A DNA stretch of 64,000 bases from Candidatus Woesearchaeota archaeon (GCA_002867475.1 PKTL01000069.1:9382-73381), one strand, 5' to 3'. Counted from the stretch's first letter, positions 34,239 to 51,971 are shown. A program made the numbers and translations. Notes: generated by a model from the letters alone, not told the origin.

Positions 34239-34407
34239 GGACTTGTAGCTCAGCCTGGTATGAGCGCTCGGTTGGCATATGAAAAGTCAAGCTTTTCGAG
34301 TTTGGTTTGAAATCCGAAAATCGAAAGGCCATGGGTTCACACTAAAATTCTTCTAGAATTTTGTGCACAAAAGAGCTTGACTTTTTTAGTGAATTCCACA
34401 GAGTCCA
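34239..34407 (+). tRNA. Degenerate tRNA-Ala(GGC)-like gene with two insertions (anticodon loop and T loop)
   Basis: TAGCTCAGCCTGGTATGAGC D arm, TTGGCA loop, AGGCC variable loop, GAGTCCA 3' end; several stem mismatches. Confidence 0.65.
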
Positions 34408-40576: not shown

Positions 40577-40733
40577 AATTATACTAAGTTCTGGTTAAAT
40601 AAAAAGCTTTTGTCTTTGAAAACTTTTTTATAATATTGTTTTCATATAATCATTTATGGATAGCTATTATTTAAATCTTTCGATTATTTTGTCTTTCATT
40701 AGTAGTAACATAAAAGACTTGATTTCGAATTGT

Positions 40734-40753
40734 AACTAACATCGCTGTTACAT
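40734..40753 (-). repeat. Site S1, collapsed attC-like mini-site
   Basis: AACTAAC-ATCGCT-GTTACAT. Confidence 0.7.
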
Positions 40754-40917
40754 ACCCCGAAACAAAGTTTATGATTGACTTTAGTCCAATCAATAAACGA
40801 CTTGAGAGTGCAACGAGGTCGACTGAAGGGAGAAGTTTTAGAGCCCGAAAAAGAGTTAGTTTTTCAAAGTAGTGACAAACCGTAAGATTTATATTTAATT
40901 TAATCGTGCTTTTTATT

Positions 40918-41283: not shown

Positions 41284-41321
41284 GTTGATAATTCTGCATT
41301 GAAATAGGGCTCTAAAATTGT

Positions 41322-41341
41322 ATGTAACATCGCTGTTAAAT
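41322..41341 (-). repeat. Site S2, collapsed attC-like mini-site
   Basis: ATGTAAC-ATCGCT-GTTAAAT. Confidence 0.7.
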
Positions 41342-41497
41342 ACTCCGAGTCCGAGTTTAACTTGAACTTTAGTTCTAAGATTAAACGAAACGAGAGCGCA
41401 ACGGGACAAGGAGCGACTAGCGACGCAGAGTAAATTAGAGTCTTATTCTTCAAAAGAGTGAAACGATGCATTGAAGCTAACTTAAAAGGGCAATTTT

Positions 41498-41800
41498 TTA
41501 TTCAAATTTGATATTTTCATATTTTTTAAGATGTTTAGAACTATGCTTATATACAACATCATGATGTTCATAATCAACAAAAAATACGGTTCCGTCATCT
41601 CCAAAAAATAAAATTACATAAGAATTATTCACATGAACACGTTTAAATTTCTTTAAATCTTATGAAAGATTTTTATAATGATATAAATTATCTGAATTTA
41701 GAATTTCATCTCTTTTATTAAGAATATTTTGAAGCTCTTTTCCTTTAAGCTTCTTAAGAGCTTTCTTGAAAAGATTGCCATATTTTCTTTTTCTCATCAT
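41498..41800 (-). pseudogene. relE: RelE-family toxin with premature TAA at 41660-41662 (cassette B)
   Basis: Manual translation MMRKRKY...HYKNLS*DLKKFKRVHV...YVILF...DYEHHD.VY; similar to 42512-42775. Confidence 0.8.
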
Positions 41801-42045
41801 AAATTAGCTCTATCTTTAAGTTCCTTTTCAAAGATATCAGCTTCTTCGTCTGATAAAAAAGAATTAGCATCTTTACTATTCAATCTTTCTAAATATTCTT
41901 CTCTTACTTTGAAATTATCAAAGATTTTTTCACGTGCAGCTTCACGCATGAATTCTTGAACATTCAAAAAACCATGATTTTTAGCATATTCTTTAGCTTG
42001 TTCTAAAAAATCTTCAGATAATCTTAGATTTATTTGCGTAGTCAT
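41797..42045 (-). CDS. RHH antitoxin (cassette B)
   Basis: MTTQINLRL..QEFMREAAREK; overlaps the toxin start. Confidence 0.8.
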   Translation of the reverse strand: MTTQINLRLSEDFLEQAKEYAKNHGFLNVQEFMREAAREKIFDNFKVREEYLERLNSKDANSFLSDEEADIFEKELKDRANL

Positions 42046-42133
42046 AATATTATATGATATTACATAATATTTAAAACTATCGCTTAATCTTAAAAAATTG
42101 CCCATTTTCAAAAAAAAGACTCTAATTTATTGT

Positions 42134-42159
42134 ATTTAACATCAGGATCGTTGTTAGTC
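42134..42159 (-). repeat. Site S3, short attC-like site
   Basis: ATTTAAC-ATCAGGATCGTT-GTTAGTC. Confidence 0.65.
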
Positions 42160-42287
42160 AGTGAGTCTGCAAGACGAACGAAGGAGCGAATAGCGACTGA
42201 CAGTATGACGCAGAGAGCCGAACGGGCTTAAACGTAAAATTTATATATGATTAAATAACATTAAATAATATTATTTAAGGTGATAAA

Positions 42288-42797: not shown

Positions 42798-42886
42798 AAC
42801 TAACATCGCTGTTAAATGAGGTTTTCTGATAAGAAAATCTGGAAGAGCGCCGAGCCGAGGCGCGAATCATTTAATCGCTGTTAGAC
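42798..42886 (-). repeat. Site S4, full attC-like hairpin (89 bp)
   Basis: TAAC-A-TC-GC..TTAAATGA...TCATTTAA..GC-T-GTTA with two internal sub-hairpins. Confidence 0.85.
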
Positions 42887-43007
42887 GACCCGAACCATAC
42901 AAAGTGAAGGTGAGAGCGCAGCGTGGCAAGAAAATCTATGATTTTCGCAGAGTTCTTTTGTTTGCCCGTACATAAATTTAAATAGTTACTTTGAATTAAT
43001 AATTATA

Positions 43008-43850
43008 ATGGTTTCACTTAATAAATATCTTAATATTCTTCAAAGAGGAATTGATAACTTTATTAGTTTTGAATCTAATTCAATTTTAGAGAAAAAACAA
43101 TTCCAAGCTAATTTTAATAGTGATGAAATTGAAAAAATCATCGAAGTAATTGAAAATCAAATCAAAATCATAAAAAAAGCGATTAAGCATGCAGATTTTT
43201 ATCGAATTCATCTTGAAGTTATGAATAATAAAGAACTTGTTGCATACATGGAAATTAACAAGAGAGTTCCATATTTTGAGTTCCGTTATAATCAAGTTTT
43301 TTCTCAACAAAAAAAAGTGATGGAGAAAAGATTAAAAGAATTAAGTAAAGAACAATCTAAAGCAATCAGTTCATGGAATTCAATAATAGGAATCTTTAAT
43401 ATATTCTGCAACGAATCATTACATTTACTAAAAAAACAAAGAAGATATTTAGAAAAATATGAAAAAAATCCTGCAAAATATACAAAGAAAAGTTTGGGAA
43501 ATAAAATGAGGAAATTTCTTAAAAATGACTTTGAAGGATTATTAAAAATTGAGGAAAAATTATTTTTAACTGTTCTTTATTCAAGTAAAAAAGAATCAGA
43601 GAATTTGAGAGAATTTGGTAAGGAAATTGAAAAATTATTACATTTAGAGGAATTCAAAATGTATCCTCATATCCCTGGTTTAGTCCTAAACATTTTTCCT
43701 GAGGCAGGTTTATCAGATATAGCATCTGCACCATTTCATGCAGCAGGATTTTTTCTTAGTATAATTCAAAGAACCAACAAATATTACAAAGAGTGGAACG
43801 AATTCATTAAAGATAATGCTTTAAAGAGCAAACAAAAGAATTTTGTCTAA
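43008..43850 (+). CDS. Hypothetical helical protein (cassette D cargo)
   Basis: 280-aa ORF whose TAA stop lies in the GTCTAAC core. Confidence 0.75.
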   Translation: MVSLNKYLNILQRGIDNFISFESNSILEKKQFQANFNSDEIEKIIEVIENQIKIIKKAIKHADFYRIHLEVMNNKELVAYMEINKRVPYFEFRYNQVFSQQKKVMEKRLKELSKEQSKAISSWNSIIGIFNIFCNESLHLLKKQRRYLEKYEKNPAKYTKKSLGNKMRKFLKNDFEGLLKIEEKLFLTVLYSSKKESENLREFGKEIEKLLHLEEFKMYPHIPGLVLNIFPEAGLSDIASAPFHAAGFFLSIIQRTNKYYKEWNEFIKDNALKSKQKNFV

Positions 43851-43933
43851 CATCGCGATTAAGAGAAGTTATTTTGCAAAAATAATTTGGATGAGGGCGC
43901 TGCAAGGCCCGAATCTCTTAATCGCTGTTACAT
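43845..43933 (-). repeat. Site S5, full attC-like hairpin (89 bp)
   Basis: TAAC-A-TC-GCGATTAAGAGA...TCTCTTAATCGC-T-GTTA. Confidence 0.88.
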
Positions 43934-44043
43934 ACCCCGAAACAAAGCTTAACTTGTCGAAGACTAAGATTAAGCGACTTGAGAGTGCAACGAGGTCGAG
44001 AATTTATGAAATAAATTCGAAGAAGTTTTGTTTTTAGCGCCGT

Positions 44044-44626: not shown

Positions 44627-44688
44627 ATGTAACTTCGGGTTTTGACGAAGTTTTTCGTCAGAAAAATTTTGTTTAAACCCTGTTACGC
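44627..44688 (-). repeat. Site S6, attC-like hairpin (62 bp)
   Basis: GTAAC-T-TC-GGGTTT...AAACCC-T-GTTAC. Confidence 0.8.
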
Positions 44689-44969
44689 GAACCGAAAGCC
44701 TTTTGCTGAGGGAAGTTTTTGCTCGTGCTAATCTTAGTCAGACATACAATAATATATTATTATACTATGTATAATATATTATGTATGGTCTAGACTATCA
44801 AGATTAGTAGCACAGGAGTCAAACCTCCTTAGCACACAAAAAGTCTTAGTTCGAGCTCCACAGGGCTTGAATTTCGTAAAAAACTTTTTACGATGACTAT
44901 TTGCTTCTGAAATCGAAGCAGGCAAAAGCTATGCTGCTATTTTGTGCTAGAGCAAAAATTTTGCGTAAC
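44682..44969. other. Gene-less, highly structured cassette F
   Basis: No ORF in the track; nested inverted repeats across its length. Confidence 0.75.
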
Positions 44970-45056
44970 ATCGCGATTAAGAGAAGTTATTTTGGAACAA
45001 AATAATTTGGATGGAAAAGTCTGCAAGACTTTGGAATCTCTTAATCGCTGTTAGTT
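44963..45056 (-). repeat. Site S7, full attC-like hairpin (94 bp), close relative of S5
   Basis: Same outer stem as S5; different inner hairpin (AAAGTCTGCAAGACTTT). Confidence 0.88.
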
Positions 45057-45622: not shown

Positions 45623-45708
45623 AACTAACATCGGAATTTAACGAAGTCGCCGAAGGCGATTTGGGAAAAATGCGAGCCGAGCATTTTTCCGTTAAATTCC
45701 TGTTAGCC
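45623..45708 (-). repeat. Site S8, full attC-like hairpin (86 bp)
   Basis: CTAAC-A-TC-GGAATTTAACG...CGTTAAATTCC-T-GTTAG. Confidence 0.88.
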
Positions 45709-45941
45709 GACCCGCAGCTACGAGCGATGTTTTGAGCGGAGTGGCAAGGGCAAGGTTTAACTTGCTTGCAAGATTAAACCGCAGAGTTTTCTTACTGCCG
45801 AGAACTAGATAGGTGCCGTAGTTTTAACTTACTTTAGAAAAATCCTATACATAACGAGTGAAACGAGACAAATTAGTTCGCTAGAACTGGGGGCGTTCTT
45901 AAAAAAAATATTTTATGTTTAATAATTCATGAATTATTTTA

Positions 45942-47402
45942 TTAACATTTAATTGTGAATTTAATATTTATTGTTGAAGGGATATCTATTTCTATAAAAT
46001 CTGCTCGTAAAATTCCATTTTCTTCTATTCGAAATTGTGCATTAATTATATCATCATACTTATTTTGACCTAATTCAATACCACATTCTTTATCATCGCA
46101 CCATGAAGTATCTCTTTGAATATTTGTTGTGGTGTTTAAAGCATTTAATTCCATAAAACATTTTGATAAATTGTATTTATTTTCTTCCAATCTATATATG
46201 TATTCCCTATAATGTCCTACTGAATAATTTAATTTATTATTAATATAAATGCTTACTTTACAAGTATTATTTTCACAAGTTGTTAAATCATCATATTCAT
46301 ATCTTTTATTTCTATCTTCTTTAACAAAACCTTTAAGGATTAATTTTGAAATATTTTGATCTTTAATTTTAAATTTATTAAATTTTAATAGAATCATACC
46401 TTTATTTTCATTTAGCAAAATTTTTTCAAATCCGAATCTATCGAAAGAATCTTTTAAATTATTGTTTGAAATATCATAAAACCCATCAATTATTTTATTA
46501 TTTTTATCTGTTAATAATTCAAATTTATCATCATGATCCGCACTAGTATCTATATTATATTTTCCATAATTTATAGGTATTAGAGGTATAGTACTTGTCA
46601 TTAATCCAAAATTATTTTTGATTTTAATGGGGACTTCAATATTTCTATAAATATATTCACTATTGCCATGGTCAATATAATAATTTACTAATTTTTCATC
46701 ACCATATGAAAAAAATGGAATAGATATTATTGTTGATATTATACCTAATAAAATTATAATAGGAATTGCATAAATAATAAATTTTTTAGTATTAAAATTT
46801 TTTGCTAATTTTTCATTTTTATCCTTTTTTAGAAATTCCTTGATTGATTTATCAAAATTATTAAATATTGATTTGAAATAAACATTATAAATAATAAAAC
46901 AAATCATCAAAAGCATTAAAAAGAGTATAAATAATATGATTCCCTCAGCCAAAAATTCATGTAAATAAGGAATTAATGCAATAATAATAATATTTTTGAT
47001 GAGAATTATTAGAAAAAATAATTGGATAAATAATAAAGATATAAACCAATTTCCTAAATCTTTTTTTGAACATTTATGTTTGTTACGATAAATTATAAAA
47101 AAAATAAAAATAAAACCTATTCCTGCAAAAATAATCCCTAATTGTGTGATTTCCCAAGACTTAGAAATGTCAAAATCTAAATTAAACCTATTGCTAAAAT
47201 AAGTTCCTAAAAAGAAAGTAAATAAAGCAGTTATAAATAAAAAAAGCCAAATAACTATTAAATCAATTACAGAATTAGAATTATTCAATTTGAATTTTCC
47301 TTTATTTTGGAATTTTGACCATAGTAAAAAAGTTAATAATATTGAAACTACTAAATACCCAGGCATATTAACCAAAAGATCAAATAGATTTTCCCAACCC
47401 AT
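45942..47402 (-). CDS. Multi-TM membrane protein with soluble C-terminal domain (cassette H)
   Basis: 486 aa, very AT-rich, several TM segments. Confidence 0.7.
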   Translation of the reverse strand: MGWENLFDLLVNMPGYLVVSILLTFLLWSKFQNKGKFKLNNSNSVIDLIVIWLFLFITALFTFFLGTYFSNRFNLDFDISKSWEITQLGIIFAGIGFIFIFFIIYRNKHKCSKKDLGNWFISLLFIQLFFLIILIKNIIIIALIPYLHEFLAEGIILFILFLMLLMICFIIYNVYFKSIFNNFDKSIKEFLKKDKNEKLAKNFNTKKFIIYAIPIIILLGIISTIISIPFFSYGDEKLVNYYIDHGNSEYIYRNIEVPIKIKNNFGLMTSTIPLIPINYGKYNIDTSADHDDKFELLTDKNNKIIDGFYDISNNNLKDSFDRFGFEKILLNENKGMILLKFNKFKIKDQNISKLILKGFVKEDRNKRYEYDDLTTCENNTCKVSIYINNKLNYSVGHYREYIYRLEENKYNLSKCFMELNALNTTTNIQRDTSWCDDKECGIELGQNKYDDIINAQFRIEENGILRADFIEIDIPSTINIKFTIKC

Positions 47403-47539
47403 AAAATTATTTATTAAATCTTTTATTTAAAAAGCTTTCTTGTGAGTTTGCAAAGATTGGGATAAATTTCTCAATTATTTATCCCAAGACAGCGTTTAAA
47501 AAAGAAAGAGTTATATAATTAAATAATAAATTGAAATAG

Positions 47540-48205
47540 ATGTCAGAAAAATTAACAGGTTCAGAAATTGAAAAAAAAGTATATGAACACATTATAAAAA
47601 GTGTTGGTATGGGTTATACTACTGACTTTAATCCTTTAAATTTATCTACAGAAGGGATTGCTGATTGTCTTGGTTTATCAATGGAAGAAGTTGAAGAAGC
47701 AATCAACAAACTAAAAGGTGAAGGTGAATCAACCAATATTGAGAGAATAGAATCTGTGAAACCTAAATTTGAAATTTGGTTACCTAAAACTAAAAAAGGT
47801 AAAGAAGTTTTAGATGAATTATGTAATTCAGGCGTTGCTATTAAAGGTTCAATGCAATGGTTTTACACTTTTTTACTTTTGGCAGCTTCATATATTTTCA
47901 CATTTGAAAAACCATACTTAGCAAATGTGTTAGAATTAAAATCATTTAATGAGTATTTTGTATGGGCTGTTATTTTTACAGGGATTTCATCATACTTTGG
48001 AAGTTATTTGGCTCATAAATGGCATCAAATAAATTATGAAATGGAAAGAATAAAAGGCGGCAAATATTACATTTATGCATTTATATTATTGATTTCAGGA
48101 ATAATATATAGTTGGATGAAAGAAATAGATGTTGCACTTATCATTACAAGTGTAGGAACAATAGCAAATTTGGTATTAGTAATATATCAAATCATAAAAA
48201 AATAA
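47540..48205 (+). CDS. HTH-like N-terminus plus TM protein (cassette H)
   Basis: STEGIADCLGLSMEEVEEAI segment followed by TMs. Confidence 0.65.
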   Translation: MSEKLTGSEIEKKVYEHIIKSVGMGYTTDFNPLNLSTEGIADCLGLSMEEVEEAINKLKGEGESTNIERIESVKPKFEIWLPKTKKGKEVLDELCNSGVAIKGSMQWFYTFLLLAASYIFTFEKPYLANVLELKSFNEYFVWAVIFTGISSYFGSYLAHKWHQINYEMERIKGGKYYIYAFILLISGIIYSWMKEIDVALIITSVGTIANLVLVIYQIIKK

Positions 48206-48206
48206 A

Positions 48207-48917
48207 ATGGCAAAGAAAAAATCATATGAAGAAGGGAGTATTGCAGATTTTGCAGCTCAGGGATTAAAAAATATTAAGAAATTATCAGGAAGTTCTTTAA
48301 TGAGTGAAAAATTAGTTGGTTTAAGCACATTTTTATTTTCATTGGTATTTACCTTTAGTTTCGGTAAATGGTTAATACAACCCGAACAGTTATATGAAAT
48401 AAGTTCAGTAGTTATTTTAATTTTAGGATTAATGATTGGTCTAGGATTATCTTCAGGTTATTCATTTATATTGTTAGCAATTTCAGACTTTGCAAAAGAT
48501 AAAATTCAAAGTTTAAGATTAGGAATTGTTTTCTTATTTATTTCAATTCCTTTGTCAATAGCGGGATTAGCATTAAATTCAAACTTTTTCATAGCTTCTA
48601 GTTGGATATTAATTGTTGTTCAACTTGCATTAATCTTGTTAAGTTTCTTTTTTAGCTTTTCATCTCAGAGCATTCCAGATATTAAAGTAAATGCTTCAGG
48701 TATATGGAAATCTATAGGTAGAGCTGGGTCAATTGCAAGTATATTAGGTTTAGTATTGGCTGTTTTAGTAATACTCGCACCACAATATTTCGGACAAACA
48801 TTATACCAATGTATTGATGGAACTGTTCAAAAAAGTTTAGAAGCATGTCCAAATATAAAAGAATATTTAGTCACATTTGCTAAAGAACAAGGATATAATT
48901 TAACTAATATTAACTAA
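48207..48917 (+). CDS. Membrane protein (cassette H)
   Basis: Multi-TM ORF. Confidence 0.65.
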   Translation: MAKKKSYEEGSIADFAAQGLKNIKKLSGSSLMSEKLVGLSTFLFSLVFTFSFGKWLIQPEQLYEISSVVILILGLMIGLGLSSGYSFILLAISDFAKDKIQSLRLGIVFLFISIPLSIAGLALNSNFFIASSWILIVVQLALILLSFFFSFSSQSIPDIKVNASGIWKSIGRAGSIASILGLVLAVLVILAPQYFGQTLYQCIDGTVQKSLEACPNIKEYLVTFAKEQGYNLTNIN

Positions 48918-48944
48918 ATTAAAAAATATGGGGAAAAAATAAAA

Positions 48945-49250
48945 ATGGAAAATAAAGAAATATTTATTCAAGCTATAAATGAAAAAAAGAAAGTGAAAGT
49001 GAAAATCAATACTGATGAAAAAGGAATTATTATAAGAGATTGTATTCCTTTTGATTTCGGAACTGGTAAATTGCCAGGAATCAGATATCATTTTCTCGAT
49101 TTAACTAGTCCTGATGGACCTCACAATTTATCTGTTTTACCTAATAAATTATTAGAAATTGAAATTTTAGATGAAACATTTAATCCTGCTGATTACATTA
49201 AATGGAAACCTAATTGGAAATTAGCAAGAGATTGGGGAGAATTTTCTTAG
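48945..49250 (+). CDS. Hypothetical protein, possibly WYL-like fold (cassette H)
   Basis: AI..KK.V.....R.C.P.DFG....I.IL.ETF.P pattern resembles stand-alone WYL-like proteins. Confidence 0.55.
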   Translation: MENKEIFIQAINEKKKVKVKINTDEKGIIIRDCIPFDFGTGKLPGIRYHFLDLTSPDGPHNLSVLPNKLLEIEILDETFNPADYIKWKPNWKLARDWGEFS

Positions 49251-49496
49251 ATTTTAAGAACGCCCCTTTTTATTTTCTTTTTTTTCTAAAGTAAGTTAAA
49301 ATTTGGGTGGAGTGCGAGGTTTTCTCGTGCGTAACCGTTAAACATTTGTTAGATACAATCTTTCCAATGTATATTATACGAAGTTTTTTCTAAGCCTTCT
49401 CCTCTATGAGAAGAGCTTTCCCTTTTAACGAAGGCACCTACCTTTTTAGATTCCCGGGCACGTTTTGTCGTCTACAAAAGGCAGTAAGAAAATTTT

Positions 49497-49540
49497 GGCT
49501 AACATCTTTTAGGTGAATTTTTATGAGAATAAAAGATGTC
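49497..49540 (-). other. Candidate attI-like primary recombination site
   Basis: Minus strand CACCTAAAAGAT-GTTAGCC; last core before the integrase, with no closing GTTA box. Confidence 0.6.
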
Positions 49541-49596
49541 TTTTATTTTTAAGTTAAAACCCAGTTTTAGGTTTTGATATGTTTTTTGCTAAAGAC

Positions 49597-49824: not shown

Positions 49825-49950
49825 CACTGGACAAGACAGCTCATGTAACCTTCGATTATGAAATAATCGATTGGTTCAATGAATGTTGTTGCAGTCCTGC
49901 TTTGTTATCGAGGTGAATTGAATAAAAATAGAGGCAGTGGACACTGGACA
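49825..49950. repeat. CA(C/G)TGGACA repeats, left cluster (49825, 49935, 49942)
   Basis: Same motif as the 51974-52042 cluster. Confidence 0.6.
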
Positions 49951-50014
49951 TAGTCAAATGAGATTTAAAAATCATAGATAACATTTAAATAATATGAGTG
50001 GCTATAAATTGAAT

Positions 50015-50233
50015 ATGACAAAATACACGGCATTTATACAAAAAGATGAAGATATGTATGTTGCTACATGTGTAGAACTTGGCACGGTTAGTCAAGGATA
50101 CACGGTTGAAGAAGCATTAGATAATCTAAAAGAAGCAACCGAACTTTACCTTGAAGAAATGCCAGGAGAAGAAGTTTCTGATTATTCTTTTACTACCACT
50201 TTTGAAGTTGGTGGTAAAAGTGTTAAAGCTTAA
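50015..50233 (+). CDS. hicB: HicB-family antitoxin
   Basis: YVA.C.EL...SQG.T.EEAL.NL.EA.ELYLE. Confidence 0.9.
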   Translation: MTKYTAFIQKDEDMYVATCVELGTVSQGYTVEEALDNLKEATELYLEEMPGEEVSDYSFTTTFEVGGKSVKA

Positions 50234-50450
50234 AAAAATTTCTGGAAAAAACTGTGTTAAACTAATTTGTAATAAGTTCAGTTTTAAATATGTTAGGCAA
50301 TCTGGAAGTCATATAATTCTTAAAAAAATAAGTGGAGATACCACAATTACTTGTGTTGTTCCTAATCATTCTGAAATTAAAATTAACACTCTGAAAGGAT
50401 TATTAAAACAAGCAAAAATTAGACAAGAGGATTTTATAAAATATCAATAG
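50220..50450 (+). CDS. hicA: HicA-family toxin
   Basis: RQSGSH....VVPNH.EI...TL...LKQA; GTG start after GGTGG. Confidence 0.88.
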   Translation: MLKLKKISGKNCVKLICNKFSFKYVRQSGSHIILKKISGDTTITCVVPNHSEIKINTLKGLLKQAKIRQEDFIKYQ

Positions 50451-50460
50451 AGGTGATAAA

Positions 50461-51237
50461 ATGAATGTGTCAAAAATAATATTTGATAAATTGTTTATTC
50501 AAGGTTGTAGTATGAAAACCATAACTGCTTATGAATTGCAGCTAGAAAAGTTTCTTGAGTGGGTTGATAAGCCTCCATTAAAAGTCAAACAAAAAGATAT
50601 TGAAGAGTATACCAAATATCTAAGAAGAAATGATTATGCCCATTCAAGTATTAGGCTTTCCCTTAATGCTATCAAATATTATTTTGTGAAAATAATGAAG
50701 AGAAGGTTTGAGATTTCCATGCCTAAAAAACATGAGAAACACACAGGCGTTTGTGATAGAAATGAGATTGTTGAAGCAATTGATAATTTAAGAAATCCAA
50801 AGCACAAATTACTTCTTGCATTGCTATATGGTTCTGGTGTTCGTGTTAGTGAAGCTGTAAAGATTAGGCATGATGATATTTTTGATGATTATGCAGTTAT
50901 CAGGCAAGGTAAAGGAAGTAAAGATAGAAAGATAATAGTTTCTGATATTTTTCTAGAATTATATGAACCTTTTAAAAAAAGAAAAGGTTTTGTTTTTAAT
51001 GGTAGAAATTCTCATTTGACTGTTAGAAGTGTTCAAGAGATAGTTAAAAAAGCGTTTAAGGATAGACATGTTCATCCTCATATGTTAAGAGCAAGTTTTG
51101 CAACGCACCTTTACGAGTCAAGTGTTGATAAGCATAAGATCCAAAGATTACTTGGTCATAAGGATGTGAGAACTGTTGAAGTTTATACTAAGTATTCAAA
51201 GTTCGATCCAGAAGTTAAAAGCCCTTTAGATATTTAA
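50461..51237 (+). CDS. Tyrosine recombinase, integron-integrase-like but without the IntI-specific insertion
   Basis: LLYGSGVRVSE, GKGSKDR, HMLRASFATH, LLGH, VYT; C-terminal KSPLD. Confidence 0.93.
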   Translation: MNVSKIIFDKLFIQGCSMKTITAYELQLEKFLEWVDKPPLKVKQKDIEEYTKYLRRNDYAHSSIRLSLNAIKYYFVKIMKRRFEISMPKKHEKHTGVCDRNEIVEAIDNLRNPKHKLLLALLYGSGVRVSEAVKIRHDDIFDDYAVIRQGKGSKDRKIIVSDIFLELYEPFKKRKGFVFNGRNSHLTVRSVQEIVKKAFKDRHVHPHMLRASFATHLYESSVDKHKIQRLLGHKDVRTVEVYTKYSKFDPEVKSPLDI

Positions 51238-51289
51238 AACATTTAAAAAAACAATAAATTTAAATATTTAGATTATCTAAATGTTTGCT

Positions 51290-51553
51290 ATGGGAACTAT
51301 AACTGTAAATGTATCGGACGAGACTGAAAAAATGTTTAGAGAAGCTGTAAAACAAAATATTGGAATAGGAAAGGGGGTCCTCGGAAAAGCTATAGGCGAA
51401 GCTATGAATATGTGGGCTGAAGAAAAAGAAAGAGAAGAAAGAAGAAGAAAAGCTATTGAAAGACTTGAGAAAGGATTTGATTTAGGGAATTTTTCTTATA
51501 AGAATAGAGAGGAATTATATGGAGATAGATTTAAAAAGTGGGATAAAAAATAA
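51290..51553 (+). CDS. VapB-like antitoxin
   Basis: MGTIT.NV...E..FR...W; GF.LG...REELY; upstream of the PIN gene. Confidence 0.75.
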   Translation: MGTITVNVSDETEKMFREAVKQNIGIGKGVLGKAIGEAMNMWAEEKEREERRRKAIERLEKGFDLGNFSYKNREELYGDRFKKWDKK

Positions 51554-51971
51554 TATTGAGAAAAAAGTTTTTATTGACACTAATATTTTTATTTATGCTT
51601 ATAATAATGAGAATTCTAAAAGAAATATTTGCTTGCAGATTGTTAAAAACTTATTTAAAAATAAAATTTCATATATAAGTATTCAAACATTAAGTGAACT
51701 TTCTAATGTTCTATTACACAAAATGAAATTATCCAACTTGGATTTAAATGAAGTTATATATGAATTGGTCGAATTTGGAAATCTTTGTGAAATTAAATCA
51801 AGCACAATTATTAAAGCAATAGATATACATAAAAAATTTAAGATTCATTTTTTCGATGCACAGATTGTTGCTACTATGATTCAAAATGGTGTTGATACAA
51901 TATATACTGAAAATGTGAAGGATTTTTCTAAAGTTCCTTTTATTAAAGCTATTAACCCTTTAGATATTTAA
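51519..51971 (+). CDS. vapC: VapC PIN-domain toxin
   Basis: FIDTNIFIY, FFDA.I.A, IYTEN.KDF, NP. Confidence 0.88.
   Translation: MEIDLKSGIKNNIEKKVFIDTNIFIYAYNNENSKRNICLQIVKNLFKNKISYISIQTLSELSNVLLHKMKLSNLDLNEVIYELVEFGNLCEIKSSTIIKAIDIHKKFKIHFFDAQIVATMIQNGVDTIYTENVKDFSKVPFIKAINPLDI

Follow-up and report, generated by a model that had tools for sequence, protein, structure and literature searches.

Sequence comparisons point, with good probability, to a tyrosine recombinase that is derived from XerA, lacks the insertion specific to IntI and is dedicated to a cassette array, for which it would serve as a functional analogue of IntI. Its gene lies in the window, the whole 64,000-nucleotide stretch of woesearchaeal DNA. 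By the defining features of the two families the protein counts neither as an IntI nor as an orthodox XerA, but an integron-integrase-like role is the most likely one for it.

50461..51237, plus strand: tyrosine recombinase gene, 258 amino acids, XerA-derived clade B, without the IntI-specific insertion (ORF, Pfam, NCBIfam, tree and model)

Catalytic residues, missing insertion and fold of the recombinase

The open reading frame at 50461-51237 starts with an ATG on the plus strand, and both its translation and its Pfam match confirm it as a real gene for a protein of 258 amino acids. The Pfam hits comprise Phage_integrase (6.9e-30) and N-terminal SAM-like domains. When the recombinase was aligned with its archaeal relatives and with bacterial IntIs, R128, K151, H207, R210, H233 and Y242 were found to be invariant and K154 nearly so, and the full R-K-H-R-H-Y catalytic set described in the original prediction is thus present.

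The same prediction held that the IntI-specific segment is missing directly after the FVF motif, and the sequence it gave, GFVFNGRNSHLTVRSVQ, occurs in the protein exactly as written. Comparison with five bacterial IntIs revealed about 46 absent alignment columns, 34 of them before GFVF and 12 after FVFNG. The absence of the insertion is therefore borne out, but its placement only after FVF is not, because 34 of the 46 missing columns precede that motif. The IntI profile TIGR02249 aligns to the recombinase in two separate stretches, with 132.1 bits, below the curated cut-off of 265, and on the homologues of relatives only profile positions 2-180 and 238-315 are covered. An AlphaFold2 (AF2) model of the recombinase is confident (pLDDT 89.1) and has two domains, in which the helices 162-171 and 188-198 are joined by a short beta element only, with no extra helix. 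If it recombines the array sites, the enzyme would have to manage without the IntI helix.

The C-terminus of the protein reads ...VKSPLDI. The KSPLD ending noted originally is accordingly there, but it cannot be taken as a mark specific to IntI, as orthodox XerA proteins of the same archaeal order also end in SPLD. Using Foldseek, the nearest solved folds of the AF2 model were found to be XerA 4a8e (1.4e-13) and IntI4 2a3v (3.9e-13), which are about equal, and XerA and IntI were not separated as the nearest fold. The best match among NCBIfam families is XerA_Arch (NF040815), with 171.8 bits, below the cut-off of 220, and the best sequence match in the PDB is the XerA of P. abyssi.

These last two matches favour another reading of the gene, namely that it encodes the housekeeping XerA, a fast-evolving orthologue resolving chromosome dimers at a dif-like site, while the cassettes would be mobile DNA taking advantage of Xer sites, in the style of IMEX or dif modules, and the array would be a by-product. 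Such a role is compatible with one in the array, and a dual role is possible. As an explanation of the locus it is considered unlikely, and the evidence for and against it is given below together with the sites, the tree and the host genome to which it belongs.

The attC-like array and the segment before the gene

The array occupies 40.7-45.7 kb, upstream of the recombinase gene and on the same strand, and its strong sites, S3 to S7, span 42.8-45.7 kb. The sites in the window were scored with covariance model R1 (see below).

40731..40757, plus strand: collapsed site S1, left edge of the array, with a downstream leader common to S4 (25.5 bits)
41319..41345, plus strand: collapsed site S2, consisting of TAAC, 6 nt and GTTA (26.5 bits)
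42131..42160, plus strand: collapsed site S2b, R''-spacer-R' without the long stem (22.4 bits)
42800..42884, plus strand: attC-like site S3 (covariance model, 79.8 bits)
43847..43931, plus strand: attC-like site S4 (covariance model, 99.1 bits; fold z -3.7)
44629..44686, plus strand: attC-like site S5, short form (covariance model, 56.6 bits)
44965..45054, plus strand: attC-like site S6 (covariance model, 93.8 bits)
45625..45706, plus strand: attC-like site S7 (covariance model, 73.8 bits; fold z -5.5)

In the consensus site the outer box, TAACA/TGTTA, is conserved, the 5' arm carries two bulged nucleotides, the stem measures 11 bp and the three-way tip is variable. In an alignment of 15 sites from six loci, 8 of the 16 pairs are compensatory. 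Among 56 model matches, 95.7% of cells are paired, compared with 77.8% after shuffling and 31-45% with the partner slid; compensatory changes occur at 12 of 16 pairs, and none of 500 shuffles attains the observed score, these pair counts being taken from a model-fitted alignment, which favours structure. The attC-like sites are long, strongly covarying hairpins, repeated along the array and separating its cassettes. This structure, rather than that of a simple dif, argues against a housekeeping XerA as the whole explanation. The cassettes between the sites carry toxin-antitoxin pairs of RHH/ParE-YafQ type and proteins without family assignment (orphans). For the RHH antitoxin gene at 41797-42111, the corresponding toxin gene is apparently broken into two frames of 46 and 44 amino acids (41498-41800, minus strand) and has probably decayed.

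S1, S2 and S2b retain just the core of TAAC, a 6-nt spacer and GTTA. S1 and S2 are 9-6-9 palindrome-like and belong to the array, and their resemblance to classic 9-6-9 duplex core sites is a point in favour of a housekeeping XerA. S1-type core words were found nowhere else in the assembled host genome, and no clear S1-type collapsed sites were found in the arrays of 12 relatives. The three collapsed sites could derive by deletion between two direct copies of the spacer plus GTTA within one full site.

The similarity between S4 and S6 breaks off at GTTA, and S1 and S4 are alike after GTTA. Joining of cassettes at the GTTA box would leave breakpoints of this kind, and the comparison makes a crossover at the 3' GTTA the most likely one.

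Following the GTTA of each site, a GC-rich and hairpin-rich leader of 50-90 nt was observed (42885-42960, 43932-44010, 45707-45790 and 40758-40830). It also occurs at loci L035, L039, L042 and L048, with motifs common to cassettes and to genomes of different families. The leader has no match in Rfam, and a scan of 33-53 kb against Rfam at E<=1 returned nothing relevant. ARAGORN found no tRNA in 33.5-53.5 kb. A tRNA-like 5' half followed by a long insert lies at 34240-34340 and may represent an intron-bearing or split archaeal tRNA, although ARAGORN and Rfam call none there.

The recombinase gene sits 4.7 kb from the last strong site, with a rearranged segment and a hicBA pair in between.

45700..49510, no strand assigned: rearranged zone, inverted arms around four ORFs without family assignment (sequence comparison)
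49359..49382, minus strand: half of a dif-like palindrome, one arm plus 6-nt spacer, of the type preceding clade X xerA genes in relatives
49497..49545, no strand assigned: weak hairpin that marks the right-hand limit of the inverted arm and has, on the minus strand, a GTTAGCC end (fold z about -1.9)
49836..49873, plus strand: small TAAC...GTT hairpin, candidate gene-proximal site (weak model match, 10.2 bits; DNA fold z about -3.4 to -4.0)
49934..49975, plus strand: tandem (A/C)(C/G)TGGAC words followed by a TATA-like box (sequence and comparison with relatives)
49994..50233, plus strand: HicB-like antitoxin gene, first of an apparent hicB-hicA-recombinase operon (DUF7387, 5e-07; HicB_lk weak)
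50220..50450, plus strand: HicA toxin gene, start uncertain, the ORF being listed as 50151-50450 (HicA_toxin, 3.4e-13)
51281..51971, plus strand: small ORF and PIN-domain (VapC-like) gene directly 3' of the recombinase (PIN, 1.5e-12)

The arms of the rearranged zone, at about 45700-45905 and 49250-49510, are imperfect inverted copies that each begin at GTTAGCC, and they enclose ORFs of 486, 221, 236 and 101 amino acids. The segment resembles a portion of the array that was inverted or rearranged. The half dif-like word at 49359-49382 may be the scar of a lost xerA/dif module. Mini-hairpins analogous to that at 49836-49873 were found upstream of clade A and B genes.

The ACTGGAC-type words at 49934-49975 lie upstream of hicB, about 12 nt before the TATA-like box, and such words also precede clade B and C genes at loci L052, L007, L034, L010, L011, L018 and L054. 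They may act as an operator, bound either by a regulator or by the recombinase. The stop codon of hicA is 10 nt before the recombinase ATG. As the promoter motif stands directly before the clade B and C genes in relatives, the recombinase here appears to be co-read with an inserted hicBA pair.

The 4.7-kb gap and the rearranged segment are also what would be cited for a third reading, in which the recombinase comes from an unrelated element and lies close to the array by coincidence, the array being a CALIN relic or being served in trans by a canonical IntI. The toxin-antitoxin genes that flank the recombinase likewise suit this reading, and Ghaly et al. (2022; PMC9668308) point out that CALIN cassettes could be acted on by IntIs of exogenous origin. 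It is nevertheless very improbable in view of the position and strand of the gene in relatives, which are taken up in the next section.

An Orc1/Cdc6 gene adjoins the recombinase in the window, which would suit a housekeeping XerA. Against this, the adjacency is not conserved: none of 20 loci of relatives, fetched with about 10 kb on each side, gave an Orc1 match, and among all loci it was seen only in L112 and L018.

Phylogeny, host genome and linkage to arrays

Homologues of the recombinase were found in 36 of the 41 genomes of the order, often in two copies. A 52-row tree was computed by IQ-TREE with SH-aLRT supports and contains the following groups.

Clade X, 14 rows, not one branch: all 11 array-less genes, G023_C22 and two named reference proteins
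Clade A, 12 rows, SH-aLRT 96: eight array-linked genes and four at contig ends
Clade B, 11 rows, SH-aLRT 97: the query, two other linked genes, five at contig ends and three database proteins
Clade C, 5 rows, SH-aLRT 95: upstream sequence mostly missing

The groups differ in their scores against XerA_Arch. Clade X proteins score 249-281 bits, with seven of seven above the cut-off of 220, compared with 204-222 in clade A, 194-218 in clade C and 159-205 in clade B, to which the query contributes its sub-threshold score. For clade X proteins, identity is 60-75% over the 120 best matches listed, the named ones of which are from Woesearchaeota, Nanoarchaeota or Aenigmatarchaeota; the nearest relatives of the recombinase are only 66, 60, 45 and 42% identical to it. 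Forcing the query subclade together with clade X was rejected by the AU test (p=0.003), for a group that was named after the tree had been seen. By these measures of sequence the recombinase is not an orthodox XerA and belongs to a fast-evolving clade B, apart from the conserved clade X. Both the score and the AU test speak against a housekeeping XerA, and a grouping with housekeeping XerA, which the original prediction had named as an outcome contrary to it, was not obtained.

The clades also differ in what precedes their genes. Clade X genes have a dif-like palindrome with 9-bp arms and a 6-bp spacer just before the start codon, where genes of clades A, B and C have small TAAC-type hairpins. 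The palindrome was seen in the last 60 nt or so before the xerA start at L036, L037, L040, L041, L043, L045, L047, L051 and L023. Clade C appears as the sister of seven bacterial IntIs, with supports of 90 and 95 in two trees in which the sampling of bacterial Xer proteins is too thin for the placement to be trusted or rooted.

The host genome assembly comprises 1.67 Mb in 84 contigs and is about 95% complete, the window being within a 73.6-kb contig and the nearest named relatives being Candidatus Woesearchaeota. Among public sequencing runs the locus was found in a single one, in the form of contigs, which is probably its source. Three PF00589 genes were found in it, the recombinase and two others, of 226 and 391 amino acids, which are of phage/provirus type and are encoded elsewhere in the assembly, on different contigs. 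Neither a canonical IntI nor a second Xer-like gene was found in this ~95%-complete genome, and TIGR02249 gave no match above its cut-off in any of the 41 genomes of the order (the host and 40 relatives). A canonical intI elsewhere in the genome, which the original prediction had listed as evidence against itself, did not turn up, nor did the separate XerA for which it had advised a search. The failure to find a canonical IntI in any of the 41 genomes and the phage/provirus type of the two other integrases, encoded on other contigs, weigh against a coincidental neighbourhood of gene and array.

The recombinase is accordingly the sole Xer-like gene found in the host genome, and the same holds for three other genomes of the same family; an orthodox (clade X) XerA was found neither in the host genome nor in these three family relatives. 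This makes a housekeeping role of the recombinase possible, as does the finding that several relatives with complete or nearly complete genomes, among them G031 and G010, likewise have a non-X copy only. An intact dif of the clade X type was not found in the host genome, where only the half site is present.

Linkage to arrays was studied with covariance model R1, which was built from sites found beside recombinase genes and which matched in 19 of the 41 genomes, 11 of these having a homologue directly downstream on the same strand and contig. Across the 41 genomes, co-oriented upstream sites were found for 8 of 12 clade A genes and 4 of 8 clade B genes (12 of 20 together), for none of 5 in clade C and for none of 12 in clade X. 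Six genomes have two copies (G008, G009, G018, G020, G021 and G032), and in each of them the linked copy is non-X. Where the two coexist, the array is found with the paralogue, and the orthodox XerA has a dif-like palindrome of its own but lacks an array, a division that speaks against a housekeeping XerA.

A further set outside model building, consisting of 80 metagenome loci and one genome locus (81 in all), was searched on both strands. All 20 R1 matches, from 13 loci, were upstream of the gene and on its strand, and in a 133-row FastTree the 13 matched loci all fell in clades A and B, with none of 27 clade X loci matched; several metagenome loci encode identical proteins, and these locus counts are hence not all independent. 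Such conservation of position and strand, in 11 of the 19 genomes with matches and for 20 of 20 matches in the 13 further loci, speaks against coincidence. The survey of neighbourhoods thus placed arrays at clade A and B genes, where the original prediction had allowed for homologues that lack them.

A contig end less than 700 nt upstream was observed for 13 of 25 clade A, B and C genes compared with none of 12 clade X genes; an array that is repetitive or varies between strains and begins at that point would have this effect. In the relative G005, the ATG of the recombinase follows the GTTA of the last site by 6 nt. Arrays without a recombinase on the contig also exist (G023 C4, G027 C37 and G031 C2), and they count in favour of coincidence. 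Four clade B loci gave no R1 match although at least 1.3 kb is available upstream of the gene, and two of them show a small hairpin only. A purpose-made hairpin finder that accepted any hairpin within 600 nt upstream gave 6 of 37 in clade X, 7 of 12 in clade A, 12 of 29 in clade B and 0 of 5 in clade C; it was noisy and was set aside for R1.

Taken over the order, clade B and its sister clade A are probably the resident recombinases of integron-like arrays in Woesearchaeota, and probably clade C as well. From this linkage it is inferred that the recombinase would cut and join the array sites.

Relation to integrons and Xer systems

In classical integrons, intI is divergent from the array and located at its attI end. 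The locus resembles an integron (IntI/TIGR02249, 2a3v) in having a tyrosine recombinase gene at the edge of a cassette array and cassettes rich in toxin-antitoxin pairs and orphan genes. The sites resemble attC in their imperfect hairpins, their ...AAC/GTT... outer boxes, the extra R''-L'' arm bases, the covarying stem and the variable tip, and the protein resembles IntI in its C-terminal ...SPLD and in the match of its N-terminal domain to the IntI profile. It differs from IntI in lacking the IntI-specific additional domain (about 181-237 of the profile), scoring 132 against 265 bits. The layout differs as well, since the recombinase gene adjoins the R' end of the array and shares its strand, a polarity opposite to the classical one. 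Ghaly et al. (2022; PMC9668308) place attI beside intI. Further differences are the conserved GC-rich leader after each site and the absence of any established attI or Pc equivalent at the locus.

With XerA (NF040815, 4a8e) the recombinase shares size, domain layout and fold, the status of a single recombinase with no FtsK partner, and the best sequence and structure match. It differs by falling under the family cut-off, by standing apart phylogenetically from the orthodox XerA of the order and by its linkage to multi-site hairpin arrays and not to one 11-6-11 palindrome. Archaeal XerA acts at a unique dif palindrome with 11-bp arms and a 6-bp spacer, and in Thermococcales dif and xerA are not neighbours (Cortez et al., 2010; PMC2958812). 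In contrast to the latter arrangement, the orthodox XerA genes of the present order are directly preceded by a dif-like palindrome.

IMEX and bacterial dif modules use the host's housekeeping XerC/D together with simple duplex dif-like sites. The present locus is similar to them in that accessory genes are bounded by sites of an insertion-less Xer-type recombinase, and it differs in its dedicated paralogue and its long structured hairpin sites.

Ghaly et al. reported 539 attCs and 6 IntIs in 75 archaeal genomes, and in their Data S1 no IntI is listed for any of the attC-bearing MAGs of Woesearchaeales (6) and Pacearchaeales (6) (Ghaly et al., 2022; PMC9668308). The arrays they describe in Nanoarchaeota, including Woesearchaeales and Pacearchaeales, are similar to the present one and nearly all lack a detectable IntI. 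IntegronFinder uses the IntI-specific additional domain around patch III, and Ghaly et al. likewise required this domain and attributed many CALINs to MAG fragmentation (PMC9668308). Unlike the present analysis, the available portion of that paper makes no mention of Xer-like recombinases beside arrays. The available portion of a review (PMC8371274) mentions neither DPANN nor such arrays, and a literature search outside subscription journals found no published account of integrases that are Xer-like, lack the insertion and lie next to archaeal attC arrays. The suggestion made at the outset, that an enzyme of this kind would be annotated as a generic Xer-like protein and so be hidden from surveys, fits the XerA_Arch best match below cut-off and the twelve listed MAGs without an IntI.

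If the recombinase is indeed dedicated to the array, the system could work as follows. Cassettes separated by attC-like sites would be exchanged by crossover at the 3' GTTA. The recombinase gene follows the array on its 3' (R') side and has the orientation of the sites, which are thereby inverted relative to those of a bacterial integron, and in the host genome the gene would be transcribed from the conserved promoter along with the inserted hicBA. A simple origin would be a duplicated module of xerA plus its upstream site, the site having turned into a docking point for cassettes.

A wider proposal, which as a whole is tentative and somewhat more likely to fail than to hold, is that of a parallel integron in DPANN archaea. 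According to it, at least two, perhaps three, insert-less lineages derived from XerA would be the true integrases of the archaeal attC arrays regarded as integrase-less, and would recombine folded hairpins without the I2 helix. They would have arisen from a duplicated xerA with its upstream dif, the latter becoming the docking point for cassettes. One of these lineages, clade C, comes out as sister to bacterial IntI, and these enzymes may then mark the transition from Xer to IntI, at a stage before the insertion was gained.

Surveys define the integron by the IntI-specific domain, and almost all archaeal attC arrays consequently count as orphans. The recombinase lineages found at array ends may explain this apparent lack of an integrase. 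If so, the orphan arrays would gain a mechanism and detection tools would need a new marker, while the accepted requirement of the IntI helix for recombination at hairpin sites would become testable on a natural counter-example. The origin of integrons from Xer-type enzymes would also be open to study via living intermediates, including xerA genes immediately preceded by dif and paralogues that carry cassette arrays at the corresponding place.
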